This document shows positions 3,425 to 59,567 of a stretch of DNA of 64,000 bases, in pieces (within the stretch, counting starts at the first letter, position 1; every line of letters begins with the position of its first letter). The position numbers and the translations under genes are program-made. Below the pieces are notes generated by a model that made no database searches, was not told the DNA's origin, and saw nothing but the letters and a program-made list of their open reading frames with translations. The stretch lies in IMG/VR virus record IMGVR_UViG_3300028583_001558; one strand, given 5' to 3'. The stretch is from a virus.

Positions 3425-3471
3425 AACACCTGGGGACTTAAGGTTCCTGGGTGTTATGCCGTCTATGCCGT
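3425..3471 (+). terminator. Hairpin + TTATGCCGT element (tandem motif copies)
   Basis: AACACC..GGTGTT stem with G-U pairs, then TTATGCCGT (3454) and CTATGCCGT (3463). Confidence 0.6.
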
Positions 3472-3489
3472 CTCGACGATACTTCAGAC

Positions 3490-3498
3490 CTACATTAC
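3490..3498 (+). promoter_or_regulatory. CTACATTAC putative early (virion RNAP) promoter
   Basis: Intergenic; one mismatch to the phiKZ early consensus TATATTAC. Confidence 0.5.
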
Positions 3499-3554
3499 TA
3501 GAGTGGTCTTTGCGCTAAGACCATTAATAGGGTTAAGTTTAGAGAATACGCCAA

Positions 3555-4679
3555 ATGGACAAATCTAGGAAAAGGGGGCATTTTACACGTATAAGATCAA
3601 TGGAAGCGTATAAGGAAAATACGTATAGTCAGCCGCGACATGCAGCACTGCGTGTGACTGAAAGCTATTATAACTATACAGGTAAGGTGCTATATCTCTC
3701 TCACCGTAACAACATTATGTTTCCTCTAACACTAGAGGATAAACACATGAACATCCCATCGGCTCATGTAGGTAAGCTTATTGTCGAGCAAACCTTCTTA
3801 GTCGCCTATGACCGTGTGGATGAATTTATCAACCAGCTAATGATTGACGTAGAAGAAGATGTTAACAATCAACACTGCGAACAGCAGCGCGTTATCGAAG
3901 CTATTACATCAGGAGACCATATAGAGAAACATAAATCAGGATTGAAGTTTACTATCCGATACATCATTGGTGGTAGGGCGATCTCAGATCACCCTAAAGG
4001 ACTTTACTTAACTAACCTAGACGTTTGTATTGGGTTAGACGGGAACGACGTTAGACATCCTTACTCTGGTAAGGACGCAACCAGTATCTTCACTCAACAT
4101 GAGAATGATAGAAAAGCATTACTACGAAGTAACTTTACAATCACGCTGATAGATAATGCCAAGCGGTTCGATTCACTGTACATCAATATCCAAGGGGATG
4201 TGATGGAGATTAAACCTACCATGTCAGAAAGCCTTGAGGACGGCATCTGGATACATCGTAGCTCCCACACATCGCAAGCTGGTGAGATTAACGGTATCTT
4301 TGTCAACGGTCCTACCACAAGCCATTACGAAACGTTAGACTGTTTGAATCCAGATAACGTAGATGCACCTATGATTTACTACAACCCCCAAGAGTGTCTT
4401 ACTTATGGGGATGAAGTTAAATTGTTGGAGAAGAAGTATCAGCTAGAGAAGCAACGGCTAGATAAAGAGGCAGCTGAAGCAGAAGAGCGTGCTAAACGTT
4501 TAGAAGAGTCACGTAAAGAACGTGATCATCAAAGGAAGATTGAGGAGTTGGAAAGAAAAGCAAAAGTAGATCGAATGAAGGATGAGCGTAGCGTTGGTGT
4601 GGAGATCCTTAAAATAGGCGGCGCATTAGTAACAGGCATCGGTATTGCATTGGCGGCAGTGGCTAAATTCCGAGACTAA
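3555..4679 (+). CDS. Hypothetical protein with C-terminal coiled coil and hydrophobic tail (phiKZ gp122-like position)
   Basis: 374 aa; E/K/R-rich helix followed by ILKIGGALVTGIGIALAAV; preceded by CTACATTAC. Confidence 0.65.
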   Translation: MDKSRKRGHFTRIRSMEAYKENTYSQPRHAALRVTESYYNYTGKVLYLSHRNNIMFPLTLEDKHMNIPSAHVGKLIVEQTFLVAYDRVDEFINQLMIDVEEDVNNQHCEQQRVIEAITSGDHIEKHKSGLKFTIRYIIGGRAISDHPKGLYLTNLDVCIGLDGNDVRHPYSGKDATSIFTQHENDRKALLRSNFTITLIDNAKRFDSLYINIQGDVMEIKPTMSESLEDGIWIHRSSHTSQAGEINGIFVNGPTTSHYETLDCLNPDNVDAPMIYYNPQECLTYGDEVKLLEKKYQLEKQRLDKEAAEAEERAKRLEESRKERDHQRKIEELERKAKVDRMKDERSVGVEILKIGGALVTGIGIALAAVAKFRD

Positions 4680-4776
4680 GCGTTAAGAATTACAGAGAAC
4701 ACTAACCCTATGGTGATGCTTAAAAAGAAGTGTCATTATGTCCGAATGTAGACATAACTGATCGGAGGATGATCTA

Positions 4777-6393
4777 ATGGATCAATATTTATTTACACAC
4801 ATACACGAGCAACATGTGCCTAAGTTCAATCCCCTTTTGGCGGAAGGATTGGTCGTAGAGCAGATGCGTGGAGTCGAGGAATACATCGACCATGTGTGGA
4901 AATGTGCAGCAAGAAGCTTTCCAGAGGGATTTACGTACGATGGAGAGTACAAACGAGCGACACCAGAGCAGCAGTATAACTACATGACGCGCAAGCGTTC
5001 ATCGCGTGCTGAGTTTAATCTAGCACCTAGTGACTTCTACGCTGTTCAATTTAACTTCAGCTATCAAGGCCAGAAGTTATTCCCACGTCTGTTACAACTT
5101 CCGTTTGTTGGACCAGGTGGTTTAATACGTGTAAATGGTTCTAAGTATGTTATCAATCCTGTCATGGTTGATAATCTTTTCTCTGTTGATGATGGTAAAC
5201 TATTCGTTGCGTTAACACGTGACAAACTTACCTTTGAGAGGGTCACGCACAACCTGGTCATCGATGGTGTAAAAGAAACCTTAAGTATCCCATGGAGTAC
5301 TATTTACCATTTACGCCAGAAAGATAAAAACTCTAAGATTATCTACATGGGTGGACTCCGCCTAAATATGGTAAGTACCTTAGGTCATTATCTGTTTTGT
5401 AAATACGGGGTAACGGAAACCTTCAAACGTTTCTGCGGTATGGATGTAGTGGTGGGTGATCGTAACACGATTAACGAGCAAACCCACCCTAAGTCTGAAT
5501 GGATGATTGTAGAGAGCTTACATTTACAGCCTATTAGCGTTAAGGGTAAGGGCTACAGACCTACTCAAATACGTGTAGCGTGTAAACGTGATCAACGCAG
5601 TCAACTATCAGACAACCTACTTGCAACCTTCTTCTACTTAGCAGATCATTTTACTCAGCGTATTCGTCCGGAGTACATTGACGATACACGTTTATGGCGT
5701 GTGTTGATGGGACATGTTATCTTCAAGAGTAAAGTGAATGAAGGAAGGCTCTTAGAGGACATCGACGCTCACCTGGTGAGTCTAGATTACTACATTGATG
5801 GATTGGTACAGATGAACCTTGAGAAGGAAGGGGTAGAGTGTAAAGACATTTACGCACTATTTGCTTATATCATCGAAACCATGAATGAGATTATAGTCAC
5901 AACGGACGTTTCTAACCTATACGGTAAGAAGCTAACAACATTGAGATATATATTACTAGATGTGATAAAGGCTATATTCAATTTCACCTTCAAGCTAAAC
6001 TCCAATAAAAATAAAACACTAACGAGTAAAGACATCGAGAAACTAATGGATAAGTATCTTAAGTTTGATACCATCCGTAAGATTAACACCGGCCATGGTG
6101 AAGTAAGTTCACTATCTACCGCAGGTGATAACCTTATGTTTAAGATGACTAACAAAGTAGTGCCTCAGACCGATGCGACTGGCTCTCGTAACGGTACGAA
6201 GACTAAACCATCTAGGTTACTGCATGCCTCGCTAGCAGAAGTATGTAGTTATGGTAATCAGCCTAGTTCCTGCCCAACAGGCCATGGTCAGATTAACCCT
6301 TACTTAAATGTAACACCTGATGGTGAGATTATACCTAATCCAGAGTTTGCCGATTTGATTGACTCAGTACAAGCTAAAATTGCACGCACGTAA
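4777..6393 (+). CDS. Non-virion RNA polymerase beta subunit, N-terminal part (phiKZ gp123-like)
   Basis: 538 aa; PKFNPLLAEG, LQLPFVGPGGLIRVNGSKY, RLLHASLAEVCS and GHGQINPY segments; size and position match gp123. Confidence 0.8.
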   Translation: MDQYLFTHIHEQHVPKFNPLLAEGLVVEQMRGVEEYIDHVWKCAARSFPEGFTYDGEYKRATPEQQYNYMTRKRSSRAEFNLAPSDFYAVQFNFSYQGQKLFPRLLQLPFVGPGGLIRVNGSKYVINPVMVDNLFSVDDGKLFVALTRDKLTFERVTHNLVIDGVKETLSIPWSTIYHLRQKDKNSKIIYMGGLRLNMVSTLGHYLFCKYGVTETFKRFCGMDVVVGDRNTINEQTHPKSEWMIVESLHLQPISVKGKGYRPTQIRVACKRDQRSQLSDNLLATFFYLADHFTQRIRPEYIDDTRLWRVLMGHVIFKSKVNEGRLLEDIDAHLVSLDYYIDGLVQMNLEKEGVECKDIYALFAYIIETMNEIIVTTDVSNLYGKKLTTLRYILLDVIKAIFNFTFKLNSNKNKTLTSKDIEKLMDKYLKFDTIRKINTGHGEVSSLSTAGDNLMFKMTNKVVPQTDATGSRNGTKTKPSRLLHASLAEVCSYGNQPSSCPTGHGQINPYLNVTPDGEIIPNPEFADLIDSVQAKIART

Positions 6394-6440
6394 CAATCAG
6401 ACTGTAAACACACTACCGACAAAAAACAACGAGGTCTCTT

Positions 6441-8540: not shown

Positions 8541-8597
8541 TAACCCACACGTCACTACCCCTTTAAAAGGGCGTCTGGTGTTAGGGCCAGACATTTT

Positions 8598-8628
8598 GGA
8601 GAGGGGGTTTTGCCCTCTCCATTTTTTT
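8598..8628 (+). terminator. Intrinsic terminator
   Basis: GGAGAGGG-GGTTTTG-CCCTCTCC stem followed by ATTTTTTTG. Confidence 0.7.
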
Positions 8629-8658
8629 GTCTTCAATTATAAAAATAAGGAATGTCTC

Positions 8659-8859
8659 ATGTTCTCTAAACCCCGTATGGATGCTGCTCTAGTAGCAGCT
8701 ATGGCTTCTTCTTTTTCTAATGCTCCAATTACAGCTAAACGATCTAGTTCCGGTAGGGTCAGGTTAGAGGACGAGGCTGCTCGCAATAAACGCATTAAAG
8801 GACGTAAGCGTGCTAAAGTAGCAAGACAACAGCGACGTCGTAACCGTAAGTCCGATTAA
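8659..8859 (+). CDS. Small basic protein with Arg/Lys-rich C-terminus
   Basis: RBS AAGGA before ATG 8659; 66 aa ending KRIKGRKRAKVARQQRRRNRKSD. Confidence 0.65.
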   Translation: MFSKPRMDAALVAAMASSFSNAPITAKRSSSGRVRLEDEAARNKRIKGRKRAKVARQQRRRNRKSD

Positions 8860-8879
8860 AGCGCCTGTATCCCATTGTG

Positions 8880-8913
8880 ACGGCATAAAGTAGGGTAGGT
8901 GATCCTACCCTAC
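8880..8913 (-). terminator. Hairpin + TTATGCCGT element
   Basis: GTAGGGTAGG/CCTACCCTAC stem after the portal stop; motif at 8880-8888. Confidence 0.65.
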
Positions 8914-8923
8914 AACTTATGCG

Positions 8924-11599
8924 TTAAAGTGGTGGTAGATCGTCATCAGCACCCGGTTCTTCACTAGGTGGTGTTTCAGATTCTTCTTCACTTTCTAGGT
9001 CTTCAGGGATGTCTGTATTGTCATCTACAGCTTCCTCTGCTTCCTCTTCCTCCCCATTACCTTCAAGCTTAGCTTTAAGCGCTTCTAACTCTTCTTGTAA
9101 TGATTGGATCATTGCATCTTTCTCTTCTGCTGCTTGTGTATCCTTATCCTGATCAGCATCCAAGTTACTTTGTGCTTTACGCCCTTCCTTACGCATCATC
9201 CTTAATAGTTTCTGCATTGGTCCAAGAATGGCTTCAGCGTGGTCTTTATGCACAGTTACAATATCAAAACTATCCACTGAACCATCATTAACCATCCCGT
9301 CAAGTTCTGGCATGATGTTATTCTTACGTAACCATTGACGCTGGAAGTAACTACGCAGAGCTGCGATGGTTCCTTCAATACCTTCTTCAAGGTCAGAATC
9401 TAACATACCGTCAAACATCTCAGCATCTAAGTAAGCAGGAAGTGCTGCTTCAAGAAGACTGTTAAACTCTTCAAAAGACGCACCCTGATTAGCTAACTTA
9501 GCAGTATCTGGTGTAGGTAAGCTAATACGGATAGAATCGATGATTTCAGCAATTAATGATTCCACTGTGTCTATGGTACCATCTTCAGTTACATCGGTCT
9601 TACCTTGTTTAAGTTTCTTACTTAATGAAGATTCTTCAATCACATTTACAATCTGTTCCATCAGTACCGATGAATTAGACGTAAACTTACGAATGAAGTC
9701 AGATAAGTGATCACACAGCGTGTCCTGATAAATGATAACACGTTTAGCCAGCAATAGGTTAGAACCTACCACGTTAGTAGCAAATTCAACATCTAGCGTA
9801 GAGTCTACAATCTCAGGCGCGATGTGCATCGACATGAAGTGACGATTACGTAAGCTTTCCTCTAACCCCGTATCGACATTAACCATATTACGCTGACCAT
9901 CTTCCACGTTGGTCTTGGTATTAGGATACGCAGGGTGGCCCTCTACGTTAATGTCAACTGACGAGCGCTGCAAGTAACCTGTAATGTCCGATGGATCAAT
10001 AGTACCTAACGGATAGCTAAGTTGATGATTCTTAGTAAAGTTGTGCATGATCTTCTCCACAGTACTTGCTGGATCTGGATCATCTTCATCTAAAGTAATG
10101 TTCAACTTAGTACGGTTGTTAGAGTTCTTGATACCGGCCATGGTGTTTGCAAACATGGTCATAGCGCGCAACGATGCTATAATCTTAGAACCTTCAATCA
10201 ATGAACGCCCTGTACCGTCGTCGTTGTAATCAAAAGCCACATACGTCAGCAGTTCAGCAGGAATGAATAATACCTGAGTATGCATCTTACTTAATGCGCG
10301 ACCAAGCATAATACGACCTACTTCGCTAGGGCATGATAATGTAGCATTCTCATTATACACGCCTGCTTCTAAACGTGCGACTAAATCGTTTTCGATTAGA
10401 GATGTATAAGAGGCAATGATTTCTGACTCAGTACGATCAGCAATGTTACTACGTTCACCGTACATGCCTTGACGTACTTGCTCTATAAGCTCACTCGTGC
10501 CTTCGTTTTCTTTTTTCAAACGTTGCTTTAAATTAGTGAAGTATTTAGAATCTTTAGCACGTGTAACCGGGTTACCATTCTTGTCCAATAGCACATAGTA
10601 ACCAACATGGTTAGATGGATCAGACGGAACGTGCACCGGAATGACAGATTCACTAGGTAACTTCATCACCAGCGGATGACCTACTGCTTCACGGTTAAGC
10701 GCCTCGGAGGTCTGTAGCTGCACGGCAGAGCGCTGGGTGTAGACACGACGACGATACGCCGATTTAAGCACAGTTGGTTTGTCTTCTCCCTGCTTGCCAC
10801 GCCACGACTCTAACCCAACCTTTACACCCGCAACGCCTCTGTTTTGAAACGTATCCGCCACTGCGTGTTGACGTGCCTTTGTTAACAATGCAGGTACTTT
10901 AAGTGCGTTAAAGTTATCTGTCACTGTGGTATAAGGGTTAAAATTATCAAATTTATCAGGCGCGGTATTGGCGCTAAATAAACTCTCTATGCCAATGCTG
11001 GTTTTCTTGCCACCACTATTAGGGTTACCTAACAGTCCCAGAGGGCGAACACTGGTAGTATCTTTAGTGAAAAAAGACTTCACGCTTTCTGTAGATACCT
11101 GGTCGTTGCTGTTAATTACATCATCTAACGTGTTCTCAGGTATAACAGCAATGGGATAACTACCTGTCTTAAATAACGCGTCTTGCAATATACTACTGAG
11201 GCGACGTTTAAGACCAAACTCGGTGATGAAATAATTCTGCACAATCTTTATGACACTAGCCGCTATATCAGCAGCCTCACCAGATACGCTGGAGGTGAAG
11301 TTGATGTCTGTAGAGATCATGTCTTTAGGCGAAAGTATTGACGATACTAATACTTGCATCGCCATTTCGGTATCAGGCAGAATTTCAAATATGGCTCTAG
11401 CATCGTTAATGTTAGTGGCTATCTCATTAGAAATAGTTTCCATGACATTCATTGAAGGCGCTTTTGTTTTTCTAGGCGGCTCTCCATCTGATTGCGTAGG
11501 ATTAACTATTTTATCAATGATGCTTTTAGTTTCGGCCGACATCCCTTGATCAGCGTCATGGCGGGGATGGGAGTGTTTGCGAATATGTTCTGTTGCCAT
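8924..11599 (-). CDS. Portal protein (phiKZ gp129-like)
   Basis: 891 aa; ILPDTEMAMQVLVSSILSPKD, KLPSESVIPVHVP and YVAFDYNDDGTGRSL segments resemble phiKZ-type portal; adjacent to gp128/gp127-like genes. Confidence 0.75.
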   Translation of the reverse strand: MATEHIRKHSHPRHDADQGMSAETKSIIDKIVNPTQSDGEPPRKTKAPSMNVMETISNEIATNINDARAIFEILPDTEMAMQVLVSSILSPKDMISTDINFTSSVSGEAADIAASVIKIVQNYFITEFGLKRRLSSILQDALFKTGSYPIAVIPENTLDDVINSNDQVSTESVKSFFTKDTTSVRPLGLLGNPNSGGKKTSIGIESLFSANTAPDKFDNFNPYTTVTDNFNALKVPALLTKARQHAVADTFQNRGVAGVKVGLESWRGKQGEDKPTVLKSAYRRRVYTQRSAVQLQTSEALNREAVGHPLVMKLPSESVIPVHVPSDPSNHVGYYVLLDKNGNPVTRAKDSKYFTNLKQRLKKENEGTSELIEQVRQGMYGERSNIADRTESEIIASYTSLIENDLVARLEAGVYNENATLSCPSEVGRIMLGRALSKMHTQVLFIPAELLTYVAFDYNDDGTGRSLIEGSKIIASLRAMTMFANTMAGIKNSNNRTKLNITLDEDDPDPASTVEKIMHNFTKNHQLSYPLGTIDPSDITGYLQRSSVDINVEGHPAYPNTKTNVEDGQRNMVNVDTGLEESLRNRHFMSMHIAPEIVDSTLDVEFATNVVGSNLLLAKRVIIYQDTLCDHLSDFIRKFTSNSSVLMEQIVNVIEESSLSKKLKQGKTDVTEDGTIDTVESLIAEIIDSIRISLPTPDTAKLANQGASFEEFNSLLEAALPAYLDAEMFDGMLDSDLEEGIEGTIAALRSYFQRQWLRKNNIMPELDGMVNDGSVDSFDIVTVHKDHAEAILGPMQKLLRMMRKEGRKAQSNLDADQDKDTQAAEEKDAMIQSLQEELEALKAKLEGNGEEEEAEEAVDDNTDIPEDLESEEESETPPSEEPGADDDLPPL

Positions 11600-11640
11600 T
11601 GTGTAATTACCTATAACTGTAATAAAGAGCGAAGTACAAT

Positions 11641-13725: not shown

Positions 13726-14551
13726 TGTAACACGTACCATCTACGCCAGTGCGCTTCAATCAGCACAGGTTTTAGGTATTCCCTACGACATCGTAGATAA
13801 TACCACACTAAATGAAAAGTTTGGTATTCTCGATGGCATCCATCCAACCGGAGGCTATCCGGTAATGCAGTACCTAGCAATCGGACGTGGTGGTCATAGA
13901 AACGCCAGTGGCGCAGACGGTGCATCGCTTACGCGTTTAAATACCCACAGAGCATCTGACGCGGCGTTATTTAAACACCTACCCTTTGTATTACGCGAGG
14001 TAGATAATGACCTTACCGCAGCACAGCGTGCCCGTTACGGCATGCGTCGCGAAGAAACTATTGACGGTGTTAATTACATCGCCTATTACTTACTGCGCAT
14101 CGATAACACTAACGTGGATATTGATTACAACCGTGTAACTGTTACTGACGGTGATCAGTCAACTGTTCCATATACGCCGTCTTCAAGCGACTTGAGTCCA
14201 ACGCCAACTGAAGTATCACCTACGGGTATTAACGTGTCTGATGGTGAGTACCTGACCGCCTCTGCAGGTATCACGCTTAACTTCACTAGCGACATTATCA
14301 ACGAAATCGTTAATGCTGCTAAAATTATCTATGGTGAAGAAGAGTACGCGACGTTATCTGAGATAGGTTTGGTATCTGGTCAGGACTACACACACAGCGC
14401 TACTAACAGCGAAGGTGGTTCATTCACTTACGCTGAAGTTATTGCCGCGCAGGTTAACACGCACATCACCATGCATCAGCAGTTATGGTTGTTAAATAAC
14501 AGCTTAACGCTTGAGTTTAATCTAGGTGGTACTGAATCATTATCAATCTAA
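13718..14551 (+). CDS. Virion structural protein (phiKZ gp127-like)
   Basis: 277 aa; TTLNEKFGI, YLAIGRGGH, LPFVLREVDNDL motifs. Confidence 0.7.
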   Translation: MTNVTRTIYASALQSAQVLGIPYDIVDNTTLNEKFGILDGIHPTGGYPVMQYLAIGRGGHRNASGADGASLTRLNTHRASDAALFKHLPFVLREVDNDLTAAQRARYGMRREETIDGVNYIAYYLLRIDNTNVDIDYNRVTVTDGDQSTVPYTPSSSDLSPTPTEVSPTGINVSDGEYLTASAGITLNFTSDIINEIVNAAKIIYGEEEYATLSEIGLVSGQDYTHSATNSEGGSFTYAEVIAAQVNTHITMHQQLWLLNNSLTLEFNLGGTESLSI

Positions 14552-14560
14552 GGTGATGAC

Positions 14561-14863
14561 ATGCAAAGTGACCATATAAGAACGTTAAGTACCTTTGCCC
14601 ACACGCTCGATTATGAGTGTGAAATAGAGACCTGTAAAGGTAAAGTCTCACTTACCAGTATAAGTGAAGCATCACGGGAAAAACTGTATGGTAGCCATGC
14701 CTGGCCATGTCACTGCAAGGAATGCGGCGCGCTCTACATCTCTAATGTACCATTACCTTTAGAGATAACCGGTCAAGGAGGAGCTCGACGCTCCTCTTAT
14801 AGCCTTGAGATCGCTAGGAGAAAGATGCTTGTAATCAAGCTCAATAACAACAGGTTAGGTTAG
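14561..14863 (+). CDS. Hypothetical protein, possible Zn-binding
   Basis: 100 aa; CEIETC and CHCKEC pairs. Confidence 0.55.
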   Translation: MQSDHIRTLSTFAHTLDYECEIETCKGKVSLTSISEASREKLYGSHAWPCHCKECGALYISNVPLPLEITGQGGARRSSYSLEIARRKMLVIKLNNNRLG

Positions 14864-14865
14864 CT

Positions 14866-15839: not shown

Positions 15840-15842
15840 ACT

Positions 15843-15873
15843 AGCCAGGGTACTGTCCCTGGCTTTATGCCGT
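15843..15873 (+). terminator. Hairpin + TTATGCCGT element
   Basis: AGCCAGGG/CCCTGGCT stem; motif at 15865. Confidence 0.65.
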
Positions 15874-15917
15874 GTTAACTCTGACGCGGGTAATGAAACC
15901 TATAGAGGAGATTCATC

Positions 15918-16612: not shown

Positions 16613-16616
16613 CGAC

Positions 16617-20203: not shown

Positions 20204-20302
20204 TTAAATAATAGACTGTTTATAGGAGGGGTCAGAAGACTCTTCTTATGAACAGTGTTATGCTGTATTTATTTTTTTAACACATTAGGTGAGGATAGAG
20301 GG

Positions 20303-22156: not shown

Positions 22157-22189
22157 AAGAGGATGCGTAATAGCATCCTCTTATGCCGT
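22157..22189 (+). terminator. Hairpin + TTATGCCGT element
   Basis: AAGAGGATGC/GCATCCTCTT stem; motif at 22181. Confidence 0.65.
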
Positions 22190-22432: not shown

Positions 22433-23389
22433 ATGTTTATAATTGTTATTAAGCAAGAGTTTAGAAATCAGATTCAAACGCGTTACATCACAACAGATCA
22501 GCTAAAGACCACCGCTAATAAAAAGCACCCTTCTATGGTGCAGCTTGAGATAGATGGTAACAATGTTAATATCTTAGATCTTGACGGTGATGTGAACATT
22601 AGCATCTACACGGCTACCGGGATGAAGTTAAATGAAATAACCTACACGGATAATACTTCATCTGGACTACCAGAATCAATCCACTTCTCACCGGATGATC
22701 CTTATCTAGATAAACCATTTGAAGGTAAAGACCAACCCTTCCCTGAACCGCTTAAATACATAGAGACACTTCAAGAGACATTAAACTCATGTCTGTTAAG
22801 TCGTTGGGATGAACCCCATGCATTCTTTAGGGGGTCTTATTCCCTAGATGTACCTATGTTGCGTAAAATAGTTGCTTCAGTATTTATCGAAGGTGTGGAT
22901 AGAACCAGTCAGCATTTAACTACAGCGAAGTGTCTATTAGCTAACGTGACGAAACTGATTGAGCTACTGCAAGATATAAAAGAAGGAAGGCGAGAAAGTC
23001 ACTTAATATTAAACGATGGATACTGGATCAACCCCGCCATACATGCTAGGGTTAAATTCCCACCGTGGTTAACTCACAATCTTGGTACGCTTATTAAGTT
23101 AGAGCAGGATAAATTATCGGCAATTACTTCTGATAAGTTAAACGGCATTAGTGTATATACGGCTGATATAGAGTTTATCAAACGTGCATCTTTATCTGAT
23201 AGAGATCGCATCTTCTATGGCGGTATGTGGTTTATTGACAAAACTAGCAATTTTAATGATAACACGTTTAAGTCAATAGTAGACGATCATCAAAAAGCAG
23301 TAATGGCTGATAATGATAAAATTCTAACACAGTTAATTGAGTTAGATGAGATTAAAACTAATTTGAAATCTTACATCAACAACAATTAA
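22433..23389 (+). CDS. Hypothetical protein
   Basis: 318 aa; RBS AAGGA. Confidence 0.65.
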   Translation: MFIIVIKQEFRNQIQTRYITTDQLKTTANKKHPSMVQLEIDGNNVNILDLDGDVNISIYTATGMKLNEITYTDNTSSGLPESIHFSPDDPYLDKPFEGKDQPFPEPLKYIETLQETLNSCLLSRWDEPHAFFRGSYSLDVPMLRKIVASVFIEGVDRTSQHLTTAKCLLANVTKLIELLQDIKEGRRESHLILNDGYWINPAIHARVKFPPWLTHNLGTLIKLEQDKLSAITSDKLNGISVYTADIEFIKRASLSDRDRIFYGGMWFIDKTSNFNDNTFKSIVDDHQKAVMADNDKILTQLIELDEIKTNLKSYINNN

Positions 23390-23421
23390 CGGCATAGGTG
23401 AGAGGGTTATCCCTCTCACCT
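23389..23421 (-). terminator. Hairpin + CTATGCCGT element
   Basis: AGGTGAGAGGG/CCCTCTCACCT stem between convergent genes. Confidence 0.65.
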
Positions 23422-24332: not shown

Positions 24333-24368
24333 ACGGCATAAATGGGACCCTATAAAAGAGCCCCATTT
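24333..24368 (-). terminator. Hairpin + TTATGCCGT element
   Basis: Stem pairs best on the minus strand (G-U pairs); motif at 24333-24341. Confidence 0.6.
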
Positions 24369-25073: not shown

Positions 25074-26219
25074 GTGGTAAATGTGGGAAGAGGTATAGAT
25101 TTAACGGGACGGGAGTTCGGTAAATTAACCGTAGTAGATCAGGCTCCTAATAAGGAAGGTCAGAGGGGTAATTGGTGGAATTGCTTATGTGATTGTGGTA
25201 ATGCGAAAGTTGCTTCGGCTAAAAGTCTAAATGCAGGCGATACCCAAAGCTGCGGTTGTCTAAATAAGAACGATCTAATAGGTAAGGTCTATGGGAGGTT
25301 AACCGTCAAAGCAGAGGGGGTTGAAAAGAAAGGTGATAAACGCACATGGGTTTGTGAATGTAGTTGTGGATCAACTACTACTGTTACGACGAGTGATTTA
25401 GTAACCGGTCATACGCGCAGTTGTGGATGTTTACAGAAGGAGCGGGCGAAAGAAGCGAATAAGACGCACGGCTATTCACGTAGACGCCATCCCCTCTACG
25501 CACGTTGGCTAGGTATGAGAAATCGATGCAATAATCCAAATGACGATTATTACGACAACTATGGAGGTAAAGGTGTAAAAGTCTGTAAGCGATGGGACTC
25601 ATTTACTAACTTCTTAGAAGATATGGGCGAGTGTCCGGAAGGTCATACTCTGGACCGTCGCGACAACGATGGCGACTATACGCCTGAGAATTGTAGATGG
25701 GCAAGCTCATCCGAGCAGGCCATGAATAAAAGCACGACGGCTATGGTTGAATACAATGGAGAACTTATAAAAAGGAGAGAGTTAGCCAAACGTTTTGGCA
25801 TTGATCCGGATAGACTACGTCAACGGCTAGAGATGGGATGGTCTGTTGAAAAAGCATTAACTGTCGAAATACCACCCCAGGTAAAATGGAGAGTGGTTGT
25901 TGGAATAAACATAGTAACAAGGACAATATATTTTAGCAACAAGCTATCCAGGTTCGCTAAAGATCATAATCTTAATCTTAATATTCTTCGTAACAATGCC
26001 ACCCGCAGGGGATTAGCAGAAGGAGAGTGGGCGGTTAAACGTATCGAGGATGATACACCTTGGAATGATTTCAGGGGATGTAGCGGGATACCAGAGGACG
26101 TTATCTTAAAGCAAGCTGATGAACCGGATATTATCTTTTCTAACGCGAGAGAGGCTTACAGGTACCTTGAGCGGAGTTCTCTGTTAGATAAGGAGTATAC
26201 ATTAAAAGTATTTGAATAA
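25074..26219 (+). mobile_element. Free-standing HNH-type homing endonuclease
   Basis: Two DL.G..(F/Y)G.LTV...W.C.C.CG......L..G.T.SCGCL repeats, then WLGMRNRC..YGGKGVKVC.RW and LDRRDNDGDYTPENCRWA (His-Me finger). Confidence 0.85.
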
Positions 26220-26254
26220 CGGCATAAAACCATGGGGCTTTACAACCCCATGGT
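26219..26254 (-). terminator. Hairpin + TTATGCCGT element
   Basis: ACCATGGGG/CCCCATGGT stem; motif abuts the HNH stop. Confidence 0.65.
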
Positions 26255-26303
26255 CATGCTGACTATGTTTCTTTTTTTGTTTCTAACCTAACTGATCAGA
26301 ATC

Positions 26304-39584: not shown

Positions 39585-39618
39585 ATTGCATAAATGGGTA
39601 GGGATTTACCCTACCCAT
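39585..39618 (-). terminator. Hairpin + TTATGC variant element
   Basis: ATGGGTAGGG/CCCTACCCAT stem, then TTATGCAAT on the minus strand. Confidence 0.5.
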
Positions 39619-39639
39619 CGATGTGTTTATGATCAGTGA

Positions 39640-42719: not shown

Positions 42720-42765
42720 ACGGCATAAGCTAACCACCCGGCCTCACGGCTAGGTGGTTAGGCTT
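42720..42765 (-). terminator. Hairpin + TTATGCCGT element
   Basis: TAACCACC/GGTGGTTA stem after the sbcC stop. Confidence 0.6.
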
Positions 42766-45264
42766 TTATACTGCAAAGCTCACATGCTCATTGTAAACAG
42801 ACGGTAAAGTTACATTTTGGTCATCTAAGACACATACCTCTGCATTTGTAAATCCTCCACTGAAGCTAGCGAAATGATTAACAAGAAATAACTGAGATGC
42901 TTGTCCTGTCTCAACCAACAACTTAATGTATCCCATTAAACGATTACGATGTACTGCATCAAACGTACGACCAGTCTCATCTAGAAGCATGGGGTACTCG
43001 TGTAAGTCCATGAAATGCATAACCGTTACCATGAAGGCAAAGTCAATCATCTCCATCTGACCCTCAGACCCCAAGCTGATATCACTAACAGGATGATCAT
43101 CATCACCCACTAGGAATGGGAACTTATAATCTAATGTTCCTGCCTGGTTAGCGCACGGCATGACTTGTAAACGGTGTCCCCATACCTTACCAATGATGGT
43201 ATTCATCTGATCTAATAGACACTTAATGAACCCTGTCATTTGGTCTGCAATGATACCCGTTGATGGTGAAAGCATATGTTGAAGATCCTGCCAACCCTGT
43301 GTTTCTTTGGTCAGCTGTTCTTGTGATTCTTTTAACTCAGCAATCATTTGCTCAAGGGTATTCTTTTGACCTAGTGTCGTGTTAAGTGTAGAAAGAGTTT
43401 GTTGACGCTCTCGCAATACATTGTCTATTACCGATTGACGCTGCGCTTCGATAAGTTGATCCCGTAAAGATTCTAAATCTACCAAAGCATCGCTTACGAT
43501 TTTCTGGTCTTCAAAGAATCGTTCAAATATCGCTTTACCCTGCTTCAGACGAGTAATCTCACGATCTACGTCAGCAATGTGACCTATAACCACACTGAGA
43601 CGTCTCTCAAGCTCCTCTATGCGCTTTTCTACCTCTAAACCATCTAAGCCCTTACTTTCATGAAACTTCTTAATAGAGGCGTCGATAAAGGCTATCTCTG
43701 AATCAATGATTTGTTCGTCACGATACATCATGACGTAGTCTTTAAAGCTCTCGTAAGTATGGAGAATTTGAAGAGGTGAAGTATCGTAATGCTTATCACG
43801 CTTAACTTGACTCCATAATGGATTTGCTCTTGGGTAGCTTTCCATGATGGCCTGTAGGCGATTAAGATCACGAACGTATTGCTGATAGGCGTTAATCTTC
43901 TCAACAATGGTTTCATTTTCTCTTTCTTTACTTTCCAAAGCATTAGTTAAGTGTTCTACCTGTATCTTAGATTCCTTTAACTCATTGTCAGAAACACCTG
44001 GACGCCATATGTAGTTACACTTAGGACACTCCATTTCCTTGGCTTGCTCCATGTGGTGTATACGGCTCTGTAAGCCATCTATCCGACGTCTTAGACTTAA
44101 ACGCTCACGGTCCATCTCTTTAACGTAGAGTACTGCTTCCTGATAAGCTGCTTTATCGTACTGCGGTTTCATCTGACTAGGCATATCAACAACCCAATCC
44201 CTTAAAGGAACAAAGACAGAATCAACTTCTTTATACAAAGCGGCGGCATCCTGCTTAGGAACCTCCCAGGGGTGATTGTAAGCGATTAAGCTTTTCTTCT
44301 TTTCTAACACTTTACGTTTTTCTAGAAGATCATCTAAACTATTAGCCCCTAATTCACTCATTTGACTTAACATGGTCTGTAGGTCATTAAGGGTTTCTGT
44401 GTAGTTATCCCTTTTAGCGGTGTGACTTGCGTGGTCAAGTTGAAGTTTAACAATGCGATTATCAAAATCCACAACTGAAGTAAACTTCTCTTTAATCCAA
44501 GTTTGTAAGTCGGTCTTTAGAACACGTTTTGCCAAACGCAATACATTGTCACGACGTTGTTGGATATCTTGTTTGACAGACTCTGGACTACGGGTAGAGG
44601 TTCGTCTATCTGTCAATAATGCTTCGATGTCTTTATGACATTCGTCTACACGCTCCTGTAAGTTAGTAGACGCTTCTAACGACACTAACCTGGCCTGTTG
44701 CTGTGCCACTTTCTCTTTAACGTGTTTAAGCGCACCCTGGTTGTCCCTAGCTGCTATTCTCACCGCGTCGTAGAGACTATATGCATAACTCATGTCAGTG
44801 GTACTTAGATTAGCTATCCACTCACGTCGTTTAGCAGGTGCCATTTTAGTAAAGCGCAATTTGCCAGTCAAGACCGCATGTAGAGACGACGTATAGCCCA
44901 GCTCACGCTCTACTAGATCTTTCTGTACCAAAGCCGTGCCACCTGGATTTAACTCTACACCGTTTCTTATAAAAGAATGTTTAGCACCACGGCTAATCTC
45001 AGAACGTAGGATAAAGTCTTCACCTTTAAATTGAATGTGAAGTTCTTTATACCCACCTTTATCAAAATCACTAGGGTTGGCAGGTAGCGGTGTTAATTCA
45101 CTTAGTAGACTTGATTTACCTGAACCGTTTGTTCCCAGCAGAAGCTGCATGGGAGTTGAAAAATCGATACAGATATAAGGTATCTCGCTCAATGCAAAAC
45201 GTCTATACTTACTCAGTATAAGTTTTTGTATCTTCACGCTACGTTTCCTTTTTTCATTATCCAT
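42766..45264 (-). CDS. sbcC: SbcC/Rad50-like ATPase (phiKZ gp165-like)
   Basis: Walker A GTNGSGKSS, coiled coils, CPKC zinc hook, LGSEGQ signature, Walker B LLDE, VNH. Confidence 0.9.
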   Translation of the reverse strand: MDNEKRKRSVKIQKLILSKYRRFALSEIPYICIDFSTPMQLLLGTNGSGKSSLLSELTPLPANPSDFDKGGYKELHIQFKGEDFILRSEISRGAKHSFIRNGVELNPGGTALVQKDLVERELGYTSSLHAVLTGKLRFTKMAPAKRREWIANLSTTDMSYAYSLYDAVRIAARDNQGALKHVKEKVAQQQARLVSLEASTNLQERVDECHKDIEALLTDRRTSTRSPESVKQDIQQRRDNVLRLAKRVLKTDLQTWIKEKFTSVVDFDNRIVKLQLDHASHTAKRDNYTETLNDLQTMLSQMSELGANSLDDLLEKRKVLEKKKSLIAYNHPWEVPKQDAAALYKEVDSVFVPLRDWVVDMPSQMKPQYDKAAYQEAVLYVKEMDRERLSLRRRIDGLQSRIHHMEQAKEMECPKCNYIWRPGVSDNELKESKIQVEHLTNALESKERENETIVEKINAYQQYVRDLNRLQAIMESYPRANPLWSQVKRDKHYDTSPLQILHTYESFKDYVMMYRDEQIIDSEIAFIDASIKKFHESKGLDGLEVEKRIEELERRLSVVIGHIADVDREITRLKQGKAIFERFFEDQKIVSDALVDLESLRDQLIEAQRQSVIDNVLRERQQTLSTLNTTLGQKNTLEQMIAELKESQEQLTKETQGWQDLQHMLSPSTGIIADQMTGFIKCLLDQMNTIIGKVWGHRLQVMPCANQAGTLDYKFPFLVGDDDHPVSDISLGSEGQMEMIDFAFMVTVMHFMDLHEYPMLLDETGRTFDAVHRNRLMGYIKLLVETGQASQLFLVNHFASFSGGFTNAEVCVLDDQNVTLPSVYNEHVSFAV

Positions 45265-45851: not shown

Positions 45852-46865
45852 ATGATGACCTTACAAACTCGATTACGCGTAATCTCTATTGGCATAGTTG
45901 CTGAGAATAAAGAACGCGATAACCCCGAAGTCTTAATAACCCCAATAGAAATACTTCCTTTTCAATTAGGAGAGGTTAAAGAAGACAAAACAACGTTCTT
46001 TAGTAAAGGGCTTGATGGTTTTGGTAAAGAATGGTCAGCACAAGTAGATGTAGATAAAACGATCAAAGCCACATGGTTAAGTCTAGAGACTAACCGTGAA
46101 ACGCCCCCTAACCTTATGCGTGGCGAGCAAGTGTTATTGTGGCAATATGCTGACACTGATAAATACTTCTACACTAGCATGGGGAGAGACGATCCACTGC
46201 GACGTTTAGAAACTGTTGTCTATCGTTGGTCGAATGAGCCAGATGTCACTAAAGACATAGAGGCGCTGACTGATGAAAACAGCTATCGCCTTACTATCTC
46301 CACGCATGATTCTAAGATTGAGTTAGTTACTAATAAAAACAACGGTGAGCCTTTTGCTTACCAATGTCTATTAGATACTAAGAACGGTAAATTTACCTTT
46401 ACCGACGATGTTGATAACTATCTATTCCTAGACAGCGCTAATACTCACATCAAAGCCCATAACAAAGACACCACGTTCTTTGAACTTAATAAGAAAGACA
46501 TCAATGGCTACGCGCCACAAGACATGACCTTTACGGTTGACCGCGATGTCTCTATTACAGTGGGCCGACACATGACCTTTGATATTGGTGGTAACTACAG
46601 TACCACGGTAGGGGGTAGTGAAACTGTAGATGTTAAAGGGTCTATCTCTATTAAATCAGGAGGTCCTCTCACTGTTAATAACCCGTCTACTAAATACACC
46701 ACACCCAATACTGAATTTACAGGTAATGTAAAAATAGGGGGTGCGCTAAATGTAAGTGGTGGTATCACTGGCGAGGGTACCATCAAAGGTAAGAGCGGTG
46801 ACTTTAAAGACTTTAAAGCCTCCAATCCTATCAATGCTAAAACCGTCTATGCTCCTGATGGCTAA
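45852..46865 (+). CDS. Baseplate central spike (gp5/VgrG-like, phiKZ gp164-like)
   Basis: N-terminal GIVAENK...TPPNLMRGEQV OB-like domain; C-terminal beta-helix-like repeats (SITVGRHMTFDIGGNYSTTVGG). Confidence 0.7.
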   Translation: MMTLQTRLRVISIGIVAENKERDNPEVLITPIEILPFQLGEVKEDKTTFFSKGLDGFGKEWSAQVDVDKTIKATWLSLETNRETPPNLMRGEQVLLWQYADTDKYFYTSMGRDDPLRRLETVVYRWSNEPDVTKDIEALTDENSYRLTISTHDSKIELVTNKNNGEPFAYQCLLDTKNGKFTFTDDVDNYLFLDSANTHIKAHNKDTTFFELNKKDINGYAPQDMTFTVDRDVSITVGRHMTFDIGGNYSTTVGGSETVDVKGSISIKSGGPLTVNNPSTKYTTPNTEFTGNVKIGGALNVSGGITGEGTIKGKSGDFKDFKASNPINAKTVYAPDG

Positions 46866-46905
46866 CGGCATAACCTACCTCTACCCGTCTAAAGGTAGAG
46901 GTAGG
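46865..46905 (-). terminator. Hairpin + TTATGCCGT element
   Basis: CCTACCTCTACC/GGTAGAGGTAGG 12-bp stem. Confidence 0.65.
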
Positions 46906-46909
46906 GTCT

Positions 46910-47536
46910 TTATGCGTCCTGCTCATTTAGCCTTGCTTGTTGTTGTACAACAATGGCTTCTAGTGCTAACATCCTTTCTTTATATGCTTGTGCTTTTTCC
47001 TCAGCAGCAATACGACGTTGTCTCTCCGTATCTCCTACCGCTCTTTTATTTACACGAACACGTTCAAGTTCCAGATGTTGATCCATGCTAACTGACCCGG
47101 TTGTCGATGCAGAGTATTCATTTACTACCGCGTCAACACCTACAGTTGCTAATACTGTTTCTTTTAACAATAACTTAACACCGTCTAACGGTTGACTACT
47201 AGGTAACGAACCTAAATCAACTGAAACAATACGACGAGTATAAGGCACTGTGTTTACATTAGGCATGCCTGTAATGTAATTAGCAGGTAACGTAATGCTG
47301 GTCCCCGTAGCGCTTGTTAGCGTGACTATCAATATATCATTGTCAACTGCATCATTATACGTGTCAATGGTTAAGCCGTTAGCAATAAATACATCTTGCA
47401 ATACATCTACACCCTGAGCCAGTAGCGTCGGGATGGTAATAAGACGAGTAACTTGATATTCCACGCCGGTTAAAGCAACAAACGGATTAGCTAGCGTGAA
47501 GAGTCCTTTATCATTAACTCTGATCAAGCTGCTCAT
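46910..47536 (-). CDS. Hypothetical protein (probably virion)
   Basis: 208 aa with a C-terminal coiled coil. Confidence 0.6.
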   Translation of the reverse strand: MSSLIRVNDKGLFTLANPFVALTGVEYQVTRLITIPTLLAQGVDVLQDVFIANGLTIDTYNDAVDNDILIVTLTSATGTSITLPANYITGMPNVNTVPYTRRIVSVDLGSLPSSQPLDGVKLLLKETVLATVGVDAVVNEYSASTTGSVSMDQHLELERVRVNKRAVGDTERQRRIAAEEKAQAYKERMLALEAIVVQQQARLNEQDA

Positions 47537-51279: not shown

Positions 51280-51711
51280 ATGTCTGTATCCACCGCATTA
51301 TGCAAACGCTTCATGCCGGATATGATGAAACGTCTTTTCTACATTACCACATTGTTTACCTTTCTGGTTCGTAGGAGTCATCGAGAAGTTAACTATAGTC
51401 GTCTTTATGGTGTCTGTTTAGATTGGACACCTAATGATGAAACGTTTAATTTACCGGCTTTGTTTACTGAGACAATATGGAGAGATACTCCATTAGGCCA
51501 AAAGATATCTGAAGAAGTAGTAACGCATAACCAGATATCTATGGATGACATAGAACGCTCAGTACCAGATTGGCTTAAGTACGGCTACAATAGCGACCTC
51601 ATGCAGGAAGACACGTTGCTGGTGTACCGTGTAGTATTAATGGAGTTAAATGATCCGTCGGTTAGGCGGGTGAGTGATGCGGAATTTGAGAGGTATATTG
51701 CAGGGCATTGA
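51280..51711 (+). CDS. Hypothetical protein
   Basis: 143 aa; RBS AGGAGG. Confidence 0.65.
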   Translation: MSVSTALCKRFMPDMMKRLFYITTLFTFLVRRSHREVNYSRLYGVCLDWTPNDETFNLPALFTETIWRDTPLGQKISEEVVTHNQISMDDIERSVPDWLKYGYNSDLMQEDTLLVYRVVLMELNDPSVRRVSDAEFERYIAGH

Positions 51712-51729
51712 TGCCCTGCTTTATGCCGT
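51700..51729 (+). terminator. Hairpin + TTATGCCGT element
   Basis: GCAGGGCAT/ATGCCCTGC stem; motif at 51721. Confidence 0.65.
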
Positions 51730-57449: not shown

Positions 57450-57483
57450 AGAAGCCTCCCTAGGATTCGTATAAATTATTCAC

Positions 57484-57492
57484 CTACATTAC
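57484..57492 (+). promoter_or_regulatory. CTACATTAC putative early promoter
   Basis: Intergenic, upstream of 57530. Confidence 0.5.
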
Positions 57493-57529: not shown

Positions 57530-58060
57530 ATGAAAGCACCCTCTCGCTGGTATAGGCTTAAACTGTGGCTACGAATAGTCCTATTCAGGACGCAGTTTAA
57601 AACCATGCGTAATAGTATGAACGCTAAAGTTCTTGGTGGTTTGGTCTCACTGTACACGTCTCGTGACTTCGCTTTCTACCGTCCTAAAGACGGCAAAGCT
57701 ATTACGATGATAGTATGGCACCGCAACGCTGAGCAAATGTTAGAGTTCATAAACATTGTTAAAGACGCCGTTGAAAAGAATGCAGAGATACCTGCTGAAG
57801 CAATGGCATTAACGAGTAGACGCACCACCTTAACCTTGGACGCCTGGCTGGTAGATGACGAGCAATACGACATCGATATCCAACGGTTTTGGGAAGCATT
57901 GAGTGAAGCAGTTACTCCTATCCACGACATTCTAATGGTCATGGAAAAAGAAAATACCGCTCGCTACAGTTATTATTCTCGACGGATGATGCGTTTATTT
58001 CAAGACATAGGACAAATGCTGGAGGCACTTGAAAAAGTGATTTTAAACGATTATGTTTGA
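57530..58060 (+). CDS. Hypothetical protein
   Basis: Start MKAP after GAGG; preceded by CTACATTAC. Confidence 0.6.
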   Translation: MKAPSRWYRLKLWLRIVLFRTQFKTMRNSMNAKVLGGLVSLYTSRDFAFYRPKDGKAITMIVWHRNAEQMLEFINIVKDAVEKNAEIPAEAMALTSRRTTLTLDAWLVDDEQYDIDIQRFWEALSEAVTPIHDILMVMEKENTARYSYYSRRMMRLFQDIGQMLEALEKVILNDYV

Positions 58061-58448
58061 CGACAGATATAGCGTGAATGAAATACTACAAGATTCTAAT
58101 AAAAAGACACTATCGGCTAGAGGCGCGTTGAGTCGATTGTTTCGAGTAATCTTGGATGATTTTAATATCACCCCAATGGGATGGAACCGCCGTATGGATA
58201 CGTATCTCAACGATCCAGTCAATGGTCTACCTCGATCTGGTAAGCCTAGACACACGGCACGTGGCAATATTAATAAACAAATGGCATCTGACCCGATGAC
58301 CATTAAAACGTTTCTTAAGATGATGCGATTCTTAGGTGCGACTCGTATACGCTTTAGCGTAGAACTTACTATTCGCAAGAAGGTAACGCAACACAGTGTT
58401 GAACTGCAGTTCTCGGAACATCAAGAACCAGATGAACATGAAAAATAA
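58053..58448 (+). CDS. Hypothetical protein, possible DNA-binding
   Basis: 131 aa; basic and helical. Confidence 0.55.
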   Translation: MFDDRYSVNEILQDSNKKTLSARGALSRLFRVILDDFNITPMGWNRRMDTYLNDPVNGLPRSGKPRHTARGNINKQMASDPMTIKTFLKMMRFLGATRIRFSVELTIRKKVTQHSVELQFSEHQEPDEHEK

Positions 58449-58557
58449 ACAATAAGCTACGCCCTTAAAAAACTATAACGATGCGTCGACCTATCTGCTT
58501 GCAGGTAGGCTCGACCATTGTATTCACTTTCTTTTTTTGCATTGAAGGAGACCTTGT

Positions 58558-59523
58558 ATGAGTCTTTTTACTACCGCAACAAAATCGTTACCTAAGGTTG
58601 TTGATCTATTCTCCCCCTCTGATAGTTCATCATCTACCCCTAGCTCTAAATCTCTAGTAGATGCTGTGAGCTCTCCTGATAATGTTTCATCTAAATCTAT
58701 AGACAGTGCAGTTAAGCGTGTTGCTAGCAAAGCACCTGCTGCGCCTACTAGTTCAGGTCTGTCCTCTGCTACGGGTAAGAACATTTCTATTTCTAACTTA
58801 AGTGCTACTGCAGTTAAGAACTTACAAGGATTCTTGCAAGAAGATAGCACTGTAGGTCAAAAGACGGTTAAATTACTAGATGGAACTATTGTAAAGGGGA
58901 TAGCAACGGAGCTTAGCGAGGCAAAAGCGTTTCAAGATATGGTAACTCAGATACACGGTATGTGTAGCGGTACCAGCATTGAAGATAGAACAACGGCGCG
59001 AGCTGTCAACGATACGCTGCTTTTAGAGGCCCTATTACTAGGACTAGCAGGTTTAATCGACTGTCTAGCAGAAGTAGTAGGGTTAGACTTCAGTGCAACA
59101 CGTATTGCCAAGCAGGGCATTGTAGCTGCTAAACGTGGGGATGCGGCTAGTCTTGCTTCTTTATCTAAGTTAGTAGGTTCAGCTAAGCTTAAAGCCAATA
59201 ACCCTAATCTTGTTAATACTCTGCTAAAGAATTACAGTCTTGCAGGTGATAACAACCCGAATAACCATCAACGCGCCGGAGCGACGTTAGTTGAACAAAT
59301 TAAGACCATCGACACTAGCTGGATGCGTAGCGACGCCAGCGGAGATAACGTTAAAGATATTAGTTCTTTGCGTGGTATATCTGACGATGCTAAAACGGTA
59401 TTGTCGACACAAAGTGAAACATCTACGGCTATCATGATTGCCAACGACACGCCTCAGGAAGATCAATCTATACTGATGCGTCGTTTCAATCCCACTAGCC
59501 TAGCTAATAGCCTTAACGCATAA
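58558..59523 (+). CDS. Virion structural protein candidate
   Basis: 321 aa; Ser-rich N-terminus; RBS AAGGAG. Confidence 0.55.
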   Translation: MSLFTTATKSLPKVVDLFSPSDSSSSTPSSKSLVDAVSSPDNVSSKSIDSAVKRVASKAPAAPTSSGLSSATGKNISISNLSATAVKNLQGFLQEDSTVGQKTVKLLDGTIVKGIATELSEAKAFQDMVTQIHGMCSGTSIEDRTTARAVNDTLLLEALLLGLAGLIDCLAEVVGLDFSATRIAKQGIVAAKRGDAASLASLSKLVGSAKLKANNPNLVNTLLKNYSLAGDNNPNNHQRAGATLVEQIKTIDTSWMRSDASGDNVKDISSLRGISDDAKTVLSTQSETSTAIMIANDTPQEDQSILMRRFNPTSLANSLNA

Positions 59524-59527
59524 AGAC

Positions 59528-59567
59528 CCTACCTCTACCTATCATGGGTAGAGGTAGGTTATGCCGT
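59528..59567 (+). terminator. Hairpin + TTATGCCGT element
   Basis: Same 12-bp stem as 46874-46905; motif at 59559. Confidence 0.65.

Follow-up and report, generated by a model that had tools for sequence, protein, structure and literature searches.

Hairpins with a conserved YTATGCCGT tail as probable transcription terminators in an uncultured phiKZ-like jumbo phage

Known terminators and the phage under study

Transcription terminators have been described in two cultured relatives of the phage studied here, phiKZ and 201phi2-1. In phiKZ the consensus is a stem-loop followed by TTATKYYGT, drawn from 61 mapped terminators (Putzeys et al. 2024, microLife, PMC10914365); it was defined from mapped RNA 3' ends, and the set was classed as intrinsic by the authors' predictor (PMC10914365). 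In 201phi2-1, motif A has 59 members, and eight terminators of like architecture gave good termination in a reporter trap in uninfected P. chlororaphis (PMC11512511); because they were active in uninfected cells, they work with the host RNA polymerase. The ends in both phages come from nanopore cDNA with a resolution of about +/-2 nt (PMC10914365, PMC11512511), and such ends alone do not separate termination from trimming or cleavage. We found that all eight validated 201phi2-1 terminators consist of a hairpin and TTATRYY|G. Seven of the reported 3' ends fall on tail position 7, and in 7/8 cases the mapped end is a pyrimidine followed by G. TATG is also the only conserved feature of the phiKZ late promoter, where all four bases are required in vitro (PMC7598289).

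The sites examined here lie in a stretch of 64,000 nucleotides (the window, meaning the whole stretch of DNA that was analysed) within a 109,453-bp contig of an uncultured, marine, phiKZ-like giant phage. The phage is recognised as phiKZ-like by a capsid protein that matches PhiKZ_MCP (Pfam PF25620, E 1e-197) and by homologues of the RNA polymerase subunits gp123 and gp178; like phiKZ, it encodes multisubunit RNA polymerases of its own. The capsid is 28% identical to the phiKZ capsid, which makes this a very distant relative. The gp123 homologue, encoded at 4777..6393 on the + strand, was identified through phrog_2943 (E 1.6e-164) and by tblastn to phiKZ 122215-123819 (E 1.5e-94), its phiKZ counterpart being annotated as PHIKZ123 polymerase. 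The phiKZ gp123 protein is a subunit of the non-virion RNA polymerase and, as context, this is the enzyme expected to read the terminator signals. With 20 kb as query, megablast found nothing similar among cultured phage genomes; kinship to any cultured phage is only distant. A Pfam search with nine large proteins was mostly empty, and no Rfam family matched at gathering thresholds.

The sites share with phiKZ a GC-rich stem-loop directly before TTAT plus KYYGT, TTATGCCGT being an exact instance of the consensus, as well as their position after genes, the bidirectional copies between convergent genes, and the presence of the phage's own multisubunit RNA polymerases. Unlike in phiKZ, where the tails are mostly TTATGTTGT, TTATGCTGT or TTATGTCGT, the tail here is near-invariant and GC-richer. 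The architecture is likewise that of 201phi2-1 motif A, with one validated terminator carrying the exact TTATGCCGT and a 3' end at 229,201, and the bidirectional copies resemble the A/B long-stem form of that phage, in which pairing between TTATG and a CATAA ahead of the hairpin extends the stem. In phiKZ the 3' ends have been mapped, and activity in 201phi2-1 comes from the reporter trap in the uninfected host; the sites of this phage are candidates identified by sequence. With canonical Rho-independent terminators they have in common the GC-rich hairpin and two U's right after the stem, and the relatives add a 3' end about 7 nt past the stem and function with the host polymerase, but a U-tract is absent, with 4 U in nine positions. 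Bacterial RNA polymerase has an elemental pause consensus of G-10/Y-1/G+1, and T7 RNA polymerase has class II terminators. In these signals, too, release occurs at a short sequence that does not vary, and the 201phi2-1 ends fit a Y-1/G+1 pause, but the likeness is a resemblance only and T7 class II terminators need no hairpin. Promoter activity of T7 class II terminators is reported in a 2026 preprint (10.64898/2026.02.12.705533).

Anatomy, location and conservation of the sites

All 12 copies of YTATGCCGT that the earlier note had listed in the window were present at the given positions and strands. This is a roughly 12-fold excess over the 1.0 expected, the chance level being set by shuffles (mean 1.0, maximum 4; 0/100 reached 12). 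The wider scan proposed at that time gave 18 copies at 17 loci in the whole contig, compared with 4 for a reversed-pattern control. Fifteen of the 18 tails are spelled TTATGCCGT, while the remaining three are CTATGCCGT, with C at position 1. A GC-rich hairpin directly precedes the tail in all 18 copies (dG -12 to -27 kcal/mol), and the stem sequences differ. The earlier description of variable hairpins before every copy in place of a U-tract was thus upheld; taken as a U-tract the tail fails, with 4 T in its nine positions and A3, G5 and G8 fixed. By a symmetric count, G-U pairs exceeded A-C appositions on the motif strand (46 vs 12, p = 8e-6), which argues for an RNA fold in motif orientation, and the G-U pairs previously noted at 3425 and 24340 are among those present.

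The candidate terminator after the major capsid gene (3423..3471, +) consists of a hairpin with three G-U pairs and a tandem tail, TTATGCCGT at 3454-3462 and CTATGCCGT at 3463-3471. Tandem loci on the + strand are found at 15843..15873 (hairpin 15843-15864, TTATGCCGT 15865-15873), at 22157..22189 (hairpin, then TTATGCCGT 22181-22189) and at 51700..51729 (hairpin 51700-51719, TTATGCCGT 51721-51729), with a further one on the - strand at 24333..24368, where TTATGCCGT (24333-24341) adjoins a hairpin with two G-U pairs. Both variants reported earlier are real and have hairpins. The first (20216..20266, +) has a long hairpin at 20216-20255 and TTATGCTGT at 20258-20266, which still fits the published TTATKYYGT, while the second, at a tandem locus (39585..39623, -), carries TTATGCAAT at 39585-39593 after its hairpin.

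Convergent junctions on the - strand include 23389..23421 (CTATGCCGT 23389-23397, hairpin 23396-23421, the latter followed on the + strand by a T-rich tail) and 26219..26255 (TTATGCCGT 26219-26227, hairpin 26228-26255). At most convergent loci a variant tail is also found on the opposite strand, behind the shared hairpin (TTATGCGTT, TTATACTGC, TTATGCGTC), a feature absent from the earlier note, and we therefore regard such sites as bidirectional. These include the convergent junction at 8880..8925 (-), with the - tail at 8880-8888, the hairpin at 8890-8913 and + variant TTATGCGTT at 8917-8925; 42720..42774 (-), with the - tail at 42720-42728, the hairpin at 42730-42761 and + variant TTATACTGC at 42766-42774; 46865..46918 (-), with the - tail at 46865-46873, the hairpin at 46874-46905 and + variant TTATGCGTC at 46910-46918; and 59515..59567 (+), with the + tail at 59559-59567, the hairpin at 59528-59558 and - variant TTATGCGTT at 59515-59523. 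Near-identical hairpin cassettes recur at separate loci (42720 and contig position 23012; 46865 and 59559), with the inner stem inverted between copies.

Each of the 18 copies lies 3' of the stop codon of a co-oriented gene, with a stop-to-motif gap of 9-363 nt, and the order of hairpin then motif along transcription, earlier proposed for the tandem loci, extends to every copy. Across the contig the motif occupied 7/9 convergent, 9/96 tandem and 0/9 divergent gaps (convergent vs divergent, Fisher p = 0.002). A co-oriented gene is located downstream at ten loci; at the other 7/17 the next gene is convergent and presents its 3' end. For the six convergent loci of the window, the reverse complement had been placed at or just beyond the opposite gene's stop codon; we found that it abuts or overlaps the TAA in five and lies 21 nt past it in one. 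An equal motif frequency in coding sequence, which would have spoken against a signal, was not seen: no copy was found within coding sequence in the 109-kb contig.

Conservation was measured as the number of orthologous sites retaining the exact 9-mer. In three related contigs (~78% nucleotide identity) it was kept at 25/28 such sites, with stems replaced or compensated. The capsid site (3423..3471) has its tandem tail conserved in four related contigs together with compensatory stem changes, and a motif terminator likewise lies just 3' of the capsid gene in phiKZ and 201phi2-1. At orthologues of 15843..15873 the stems differ and the tail is the same, and at those of 22157..22189 three unrelated stems share one common tail. 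Selection acts on the structure and on the tail. A hairpin followed by YTATG was enriched in every jumbo phage tested, with 19 observed against 0.8 expected in this contig, 40 against 1.7 in G002, 46 against 2.0 in pEa_SNUABM_54, 56 against 3.4 in KpHz_2 and 58 against 3.3 in phiKZ. As the tail is near-unchanged between phages whose capsids are ~28% identical, it is presumably read by something conserved, and the sequence comparison argues for such a reader.

Termination and competing explanations

The anatomy, the placement after co-oriented genes, the selection on both stem pairing and tail, and the agreement with the published motif were all observed here. We consider it very probable (roughly 85%) that the hairpin and tail sites terminate transcription in this phage, a phiKZ-like jumbo phage of the nucleus-forming, Chimalliviridae type. 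This agrees with the termination or 3'-end alternative of the earlier note, the sites matching both the phiKZ hairpin-TTATKYYGT element (PMC10914365) and 201phi2-1 motif A. The description of the signal as specific to phage RNA polymerase is not supported, eight 201phi2-1 terminators of the same architecture being active in uninfected P. chlororaphis. The element is not new, having been published in 2024 for phiKZ; the TTATGCCGT sites are this phage's version of the known phiKZ/201phi2-1 stop signal, a solid but ordinary result that leaves the published picture of both phages unchanged.

As a terminator, the nascent RNA would fold into the GC-rich hairpin, and the conserved tail UUAUGCC|GU would stand in for the usual U-tract. 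By analogy with the mapped 201phi2-1 ends, the transcript would end about 7 nt past the stem, its last base being the tail's second pyrimidine and the conserved G coming next. Release may come from weak rU:dA pairs beside the stem combined with a pyrimidine(-1)/G(+1) pause, and at convergent gene pairs a single hairpin would serve both directions, with one tail per strand. In assembled metatranscriptome contigs, those of X17 and X18 (two studies) stop at 3396 and 3385, ahead of the capsid terminator, and the next start at 3515 and 3519; contigs of X15 and X16 bridge it, although assembled contigs cannot show RNA ends. The bridging contigs could be read-through or DNA carry-over, and neither pattern, nor the uncovered stretches, is counted for or against termination. 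The phage is present in six marine metatranscriptomes.

It is conceivable, though rather unlikely, that the invariant tail does more than act as a poor U-tract, and that its TATG and its pyrimidine-G step are read sequence-specifically by phage polymerases, either through a promoter-recognition module kept in the non-virion enzyme or through a Y-1/G+1 pause. This would amount to a promoter-like pause-and-release, with a restart at the very TATG conceivable for some tandem copies. Nucleus-forming jumbo phages would then have their stop and late-start signals tied together by these four bases.

A processing or stability signal appears improbable; here the polymerase would not stop at the site, and a nuclease of host or phage would cut at the hairpin and tail or trim back to them, leaving a protected 3' end. 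In its favour, termination and cleavage look alike in nanopore 3'-end maps and in a two-reporter trap, tail conservation reaches 2 nt past the mapped end, as might be expected of a nuclease site, and some assembled RNA contigs bridge the capsid terminator. However, the ends fall about 7 nt past the stem, a spacing typical of intrinsic termination, and we know of no nuclease with specificity for a hairpin and tail of this kind. The 201phi2-1 terminators were also strong in the terminator trap without any phage protein, and the phiKZ set was called intrinsic by the authors' predictor (PMC10914365).

Slightly less probable still is a dual element, raised in the earlier note, in which the hairpin terminates and the TATG core serves as a late-promoter start (T-3ATG+1) for the non-virion RNA polymerase, so that transcription stops and restarts at the same spot. 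TATG is present in every copy, as claimed, and at ten loci the next gene is co-oriented; in the phiKZ late promoter nothing besides TATG is conserved (PMC7598289). But a start at the seven convergent loci of the 17 would yield antisense RNA only, and none of the nine divergent gaps holds the motif. Tail position 5 in phiKZ may be T as well as G, a change that the late promoter, with its strict requirement for TATG, would not tolerate, and what has been reported at such sites in 201phi2-1 are 3' ends. Downstream of some copies, and in divergent gaps, there is a separate promoter-like box, ACCTACATTAC; after the capsid terminator it follows at 17 nt. TATG itself is very frequent, with 749 occurrences across the contig, and no late-promoter context emerged when all intergenic TATG in the contig were listed. 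The convergent loci, the empty divergent gaps, the separate box and phiKZ position 5 together disfavour the proposed fusion of terminator and start site.

A promoter-only reading was rejected on orientation and gene layout. The same grounds led us to reject a DNA-level repeat with a mere preference for intergenic positions, be it a mobile palindromic element or a site for replication, packaging or recombination. Such a repeat is highly improbable despite the near-identical cassettes with inverted inner stems, since 18/18 copies share the orientation of the upstream gene and stems vary with pairing kept and G-U exceeding A-C on the transcribed strand. In addition, the definition of the element in phiKZ and 201phi2-1 rests on RNA ends, and strand-specific ends at such sites are already on record for both phages.

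Annotation of uncultured jumbo phages

For uncultured jumbo phages, a hairpin with TTATGCCGT is a far better guide to where operons end and how genes are oriented than the output of generic terminator finders, in which such sites are missing or placed on the wrong strand. In this contig, a scan for a hairpin and T-run likewise missed TTATGCCGT sites or called the wrong strand. Ordinary U-tract terminators also occur in the contig, for example at 8597-8631.

Distribution, conservation and placement of the motif

Within the window we observed 12 copies of YTATGCCGT, the 9-mer tail that directly follows a GC-rich hairpin, while dinucleotide-preserving shuffles averaged 1.0 copies and never exceeded 4; the coordinates and strands assigned to all 12 copies in the earlier note were exact. 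The 109,453-bp contig containing the window (CheckV completeness 39%) held 18 copies at 17 loci, compared with 4 for the reversed control pattern. Each of the 18 was directly preceded by a stable GC-rich hairpin (dG -12 to -27 kcal/mol) whose stem sequence varied between sites. Hairpins also accompanied the two variant tails already noted, at 20258 (+; TTATGCTGT) and 39585 (-; TTATGCAAT). In an unbiased hairpin scan of the whole contig, YTATG followed strong hairpins 19 times, against about 0.8 expected.

Placement was examined on simple longest-ORF calls (coding density 94%). On this map all 18 copies were 3' of the stop codon of a same-strand gene, with 9-363 nt between stop codon and motif, and none of the 18 across the whole contig was inside a gene. 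In the contig, the motif was present in 7 of the 9 convergent and 9 of the 96 tandem gaps, and in none of the 9 divergent gaps (convergent versus divergent, Fisher p = 0.002). As had been claimed for the convergent loci, the tail's 3' end adjoins or overlaps the TAA of the opposite gene. Most of these loci also have a variant tail on the opposite strand, following the shared hairpin (TTATGCGTT at 8917 and 59523, TTATACTGC at 42766, TTATGCGTC at 46910), and are therefore bidirectional.

Four related viral contigs have capsid proteins that are 85-100% identical, and three of these, aligned to this contig at approximately 78% nucleotide identity, formed the comparison set. Motif density was similar in the relatives, e.g. 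36 copies in 189 kb of one contig with a control of 4. The exact 9-mer was kept in 25 of 28 orthologous comparisons and the remaining three differed by 1 or 2 bases, while the orthologous hairpins were often swapped for unrelated sequence or altered by compensatory pairs. Scored symmetrically, motif-strand appositions at 62 distinct sites comprised 46 G-U and 12 A-C (p = 8e-6, indicative only since sites share descent), an excess suggesting that the hairpin forms in RNA transcribed in the motif orientation. The element is real and strongly selected.

Near-identical hairpins were observed at window 42730-42761 and contig 23022-23053, and at window 46874-46905 and 59528-59558, with the inner stem inverted in one of the two pairs. 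In one relative, the site orthologous to 23389 carries the 46874-type stem. It seems that terminator cassettes have been copied or exchanged among loci.

Correspondence to mapped jumbo-phage terminators

The element belongs to an already published kind of terminator. Transcript 3' ends of phiKZ were mapped by Putzeys et al. 2024, and a motif conserved in 61 terminators consists of a stem-loop then TTAT, the full consensus ending TTATKYYGT (PMC10914365), of which TTATGCCGT in the present phage is an exact instance. The same motif, named motif A, occurs in 59 terminators of 201phi2-1, 15 terminators of that phage being bidirectional (PMC11512511). We examined by sequence eight 201phi2-1 terminators validated by reporter trap, and all eight were a hairpin plus (T)TTATRYY, then G, with an exact TTATGCCGT in one. 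The reported 3' end was at tail position 7 in seven of the eight and at position 6 in the other, i.e. about 7 nt past the GC-rich stem on the pyrimidine preceding G, at a mapping resolution of approximately +/-2 nt (PMC11512511). A motif terminator directly downstream of the capsid gene is common to phiKZ, 201phi2-1 and the present phage. Hairpin-then-YTATG was enriched in every phiKZ-like genome tested, including phiKZ (58 versus 3.3 expected), Erwinia phage pEa_SNUABM_54 (46 versus 2.0), Serratia phage KpHz_2 (56 versus 3.4), where TTATGCCGT was also the top 9-mer, and, to a lesser degree, Vibrio phage pVp-JHP1101 (11 versus 1.3).

Probable termination mechanism and the TATG overlap

The element is best read as an intrinsic-type terminator with UUAUGCC/GU in place of the U-tract. 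The hairpin, the two U's adjoining the stem and the 7-nt distance resemble ordinary intrinsic terminators, whereas the fixed A3, G5 and G8 of the tail do not. Pyrimidine/G-type pauses are known for bacterial RNA polymerase, and the pyrimidine/G step may act as a pause of this kind. The earlier description of a tail "instead of a U-tract" was fair, as a generic hairpin plus T-run scan missed these sites or assigned them to the wrong strand. Specificity for the phage RNA polymerase, also proposed, is not supported, because the validated 201phi2-1 copies function in uninfected P. chlororaphis.

The earlier note had offered, as its other alternative, a terminator fused to a TATG-type start site. 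The overlap on which this rests is real: the tail contains the TATG of the phiKZ late promoter, T-3ATG+1, all four bases of which are needed in vitro and whose source of specificity is unknown (PMC7598289). The string TATG is absent from both terminator papers (PMC10914365 and PMC11512511), so the overlap was apparently not discussed there. A start at the tail is nevertheless unlikely as its main function, given that at 7 of 17 loci it would yield nothing but antisense RNA, that divergent gaps lack the motif, that phiKZ tolerates T at the tail's G position (PMC10914365), and that a separate promoter-like box, ACCTACATTAC, is present near gene starts.

Exact matches to ACCTACATTAC were observed at window 3488-3498, 25039-25049 and 57482-57492 (all +) and at contig positions 9818 and 98070. 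Of the six exact copies in the contig, five lie between genes, 4-63 nt before a co-oriented start; one is 17 nt past the capsid terminator (3423-3471, +) and others are in divergent gaps. The box is conserved in the four related contigs and resembles the TATATTAC-type AT-rich early-promoter boxes downstream of 201phi2-1 terminators. It is probably the early (virion-polymerase) promoter box of this phage.

Several other hairpins were also observed. An ordinary hairpin plus T-run terminator (8597-8631, +) follows the gene at 6441-8540, indicating that the phage uses both terminator kinds; the 93-codon ORF overlapping it (8578-8859) is probably not a gene. Directly after the capsid stop codon, a first hairpin (3297-3324, +) shows compensatory changes in relatives; after it comes a conserved TTCATTAACAATCTGG instead of a TTATG tail. 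Three tandem paralogous genes of phrog_14489, about 950 codons each (28065-36755, -), are separated by GC-rich hairpins (30929-30950 and 33843-33866) that lack a TTATG tail and run directly into a GGAG ribosome site. They may serve as stabilisers or attenuators inside an operon.

Phage identity and metatranscriptome contigs

The gene at 1130-3292 encodes a phiKZ-type major capsid protein (PF25620, E 1e-197), with only 39% identity to its best cultured match and 28% to phiKZ. The gene at 4777-6393 is a homologue of phiKZ gp123, annotated "polymerase"; gp123 is a non-virion RNA polymerase subunit. Elsewhere, the contig encodes a 1323-residue homologue of gp178, which is the beta-like subunit of the virion RNA polymerase. 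Sigma-70-like promoter matches were depleted in window 3000-22999 (30 versus 50.1 +/- 7.7 in shuffles), consistent with a phage that makes no use of the host polymerase.

DNA sequencing runs of seawater, estuary and marine origin contained the capsid region, and this is a widespread marine jumbo phage without a close cultured relative. At least 86% of sampled words from window 1130-4700 were found in runs from eight seawater, estuary or marine studies, including six metatranscriptome runs. In the six marine metatranscriptome runs the capsid region was represented by assembled contigs only. In two runs, each from a different study, the capsid contig ended at 3385-3396 and the next started at 3515-3519; contigs of two other runs spanned the site, and this mixed pattern is weighed neither for nor against termination. 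In a single run, one RNA contig ended within the loop of the hairpin of the 22181 terminator, at position 22173, and continued into Illumina adapter sequence, which suggests many fragments with a common end at this position.
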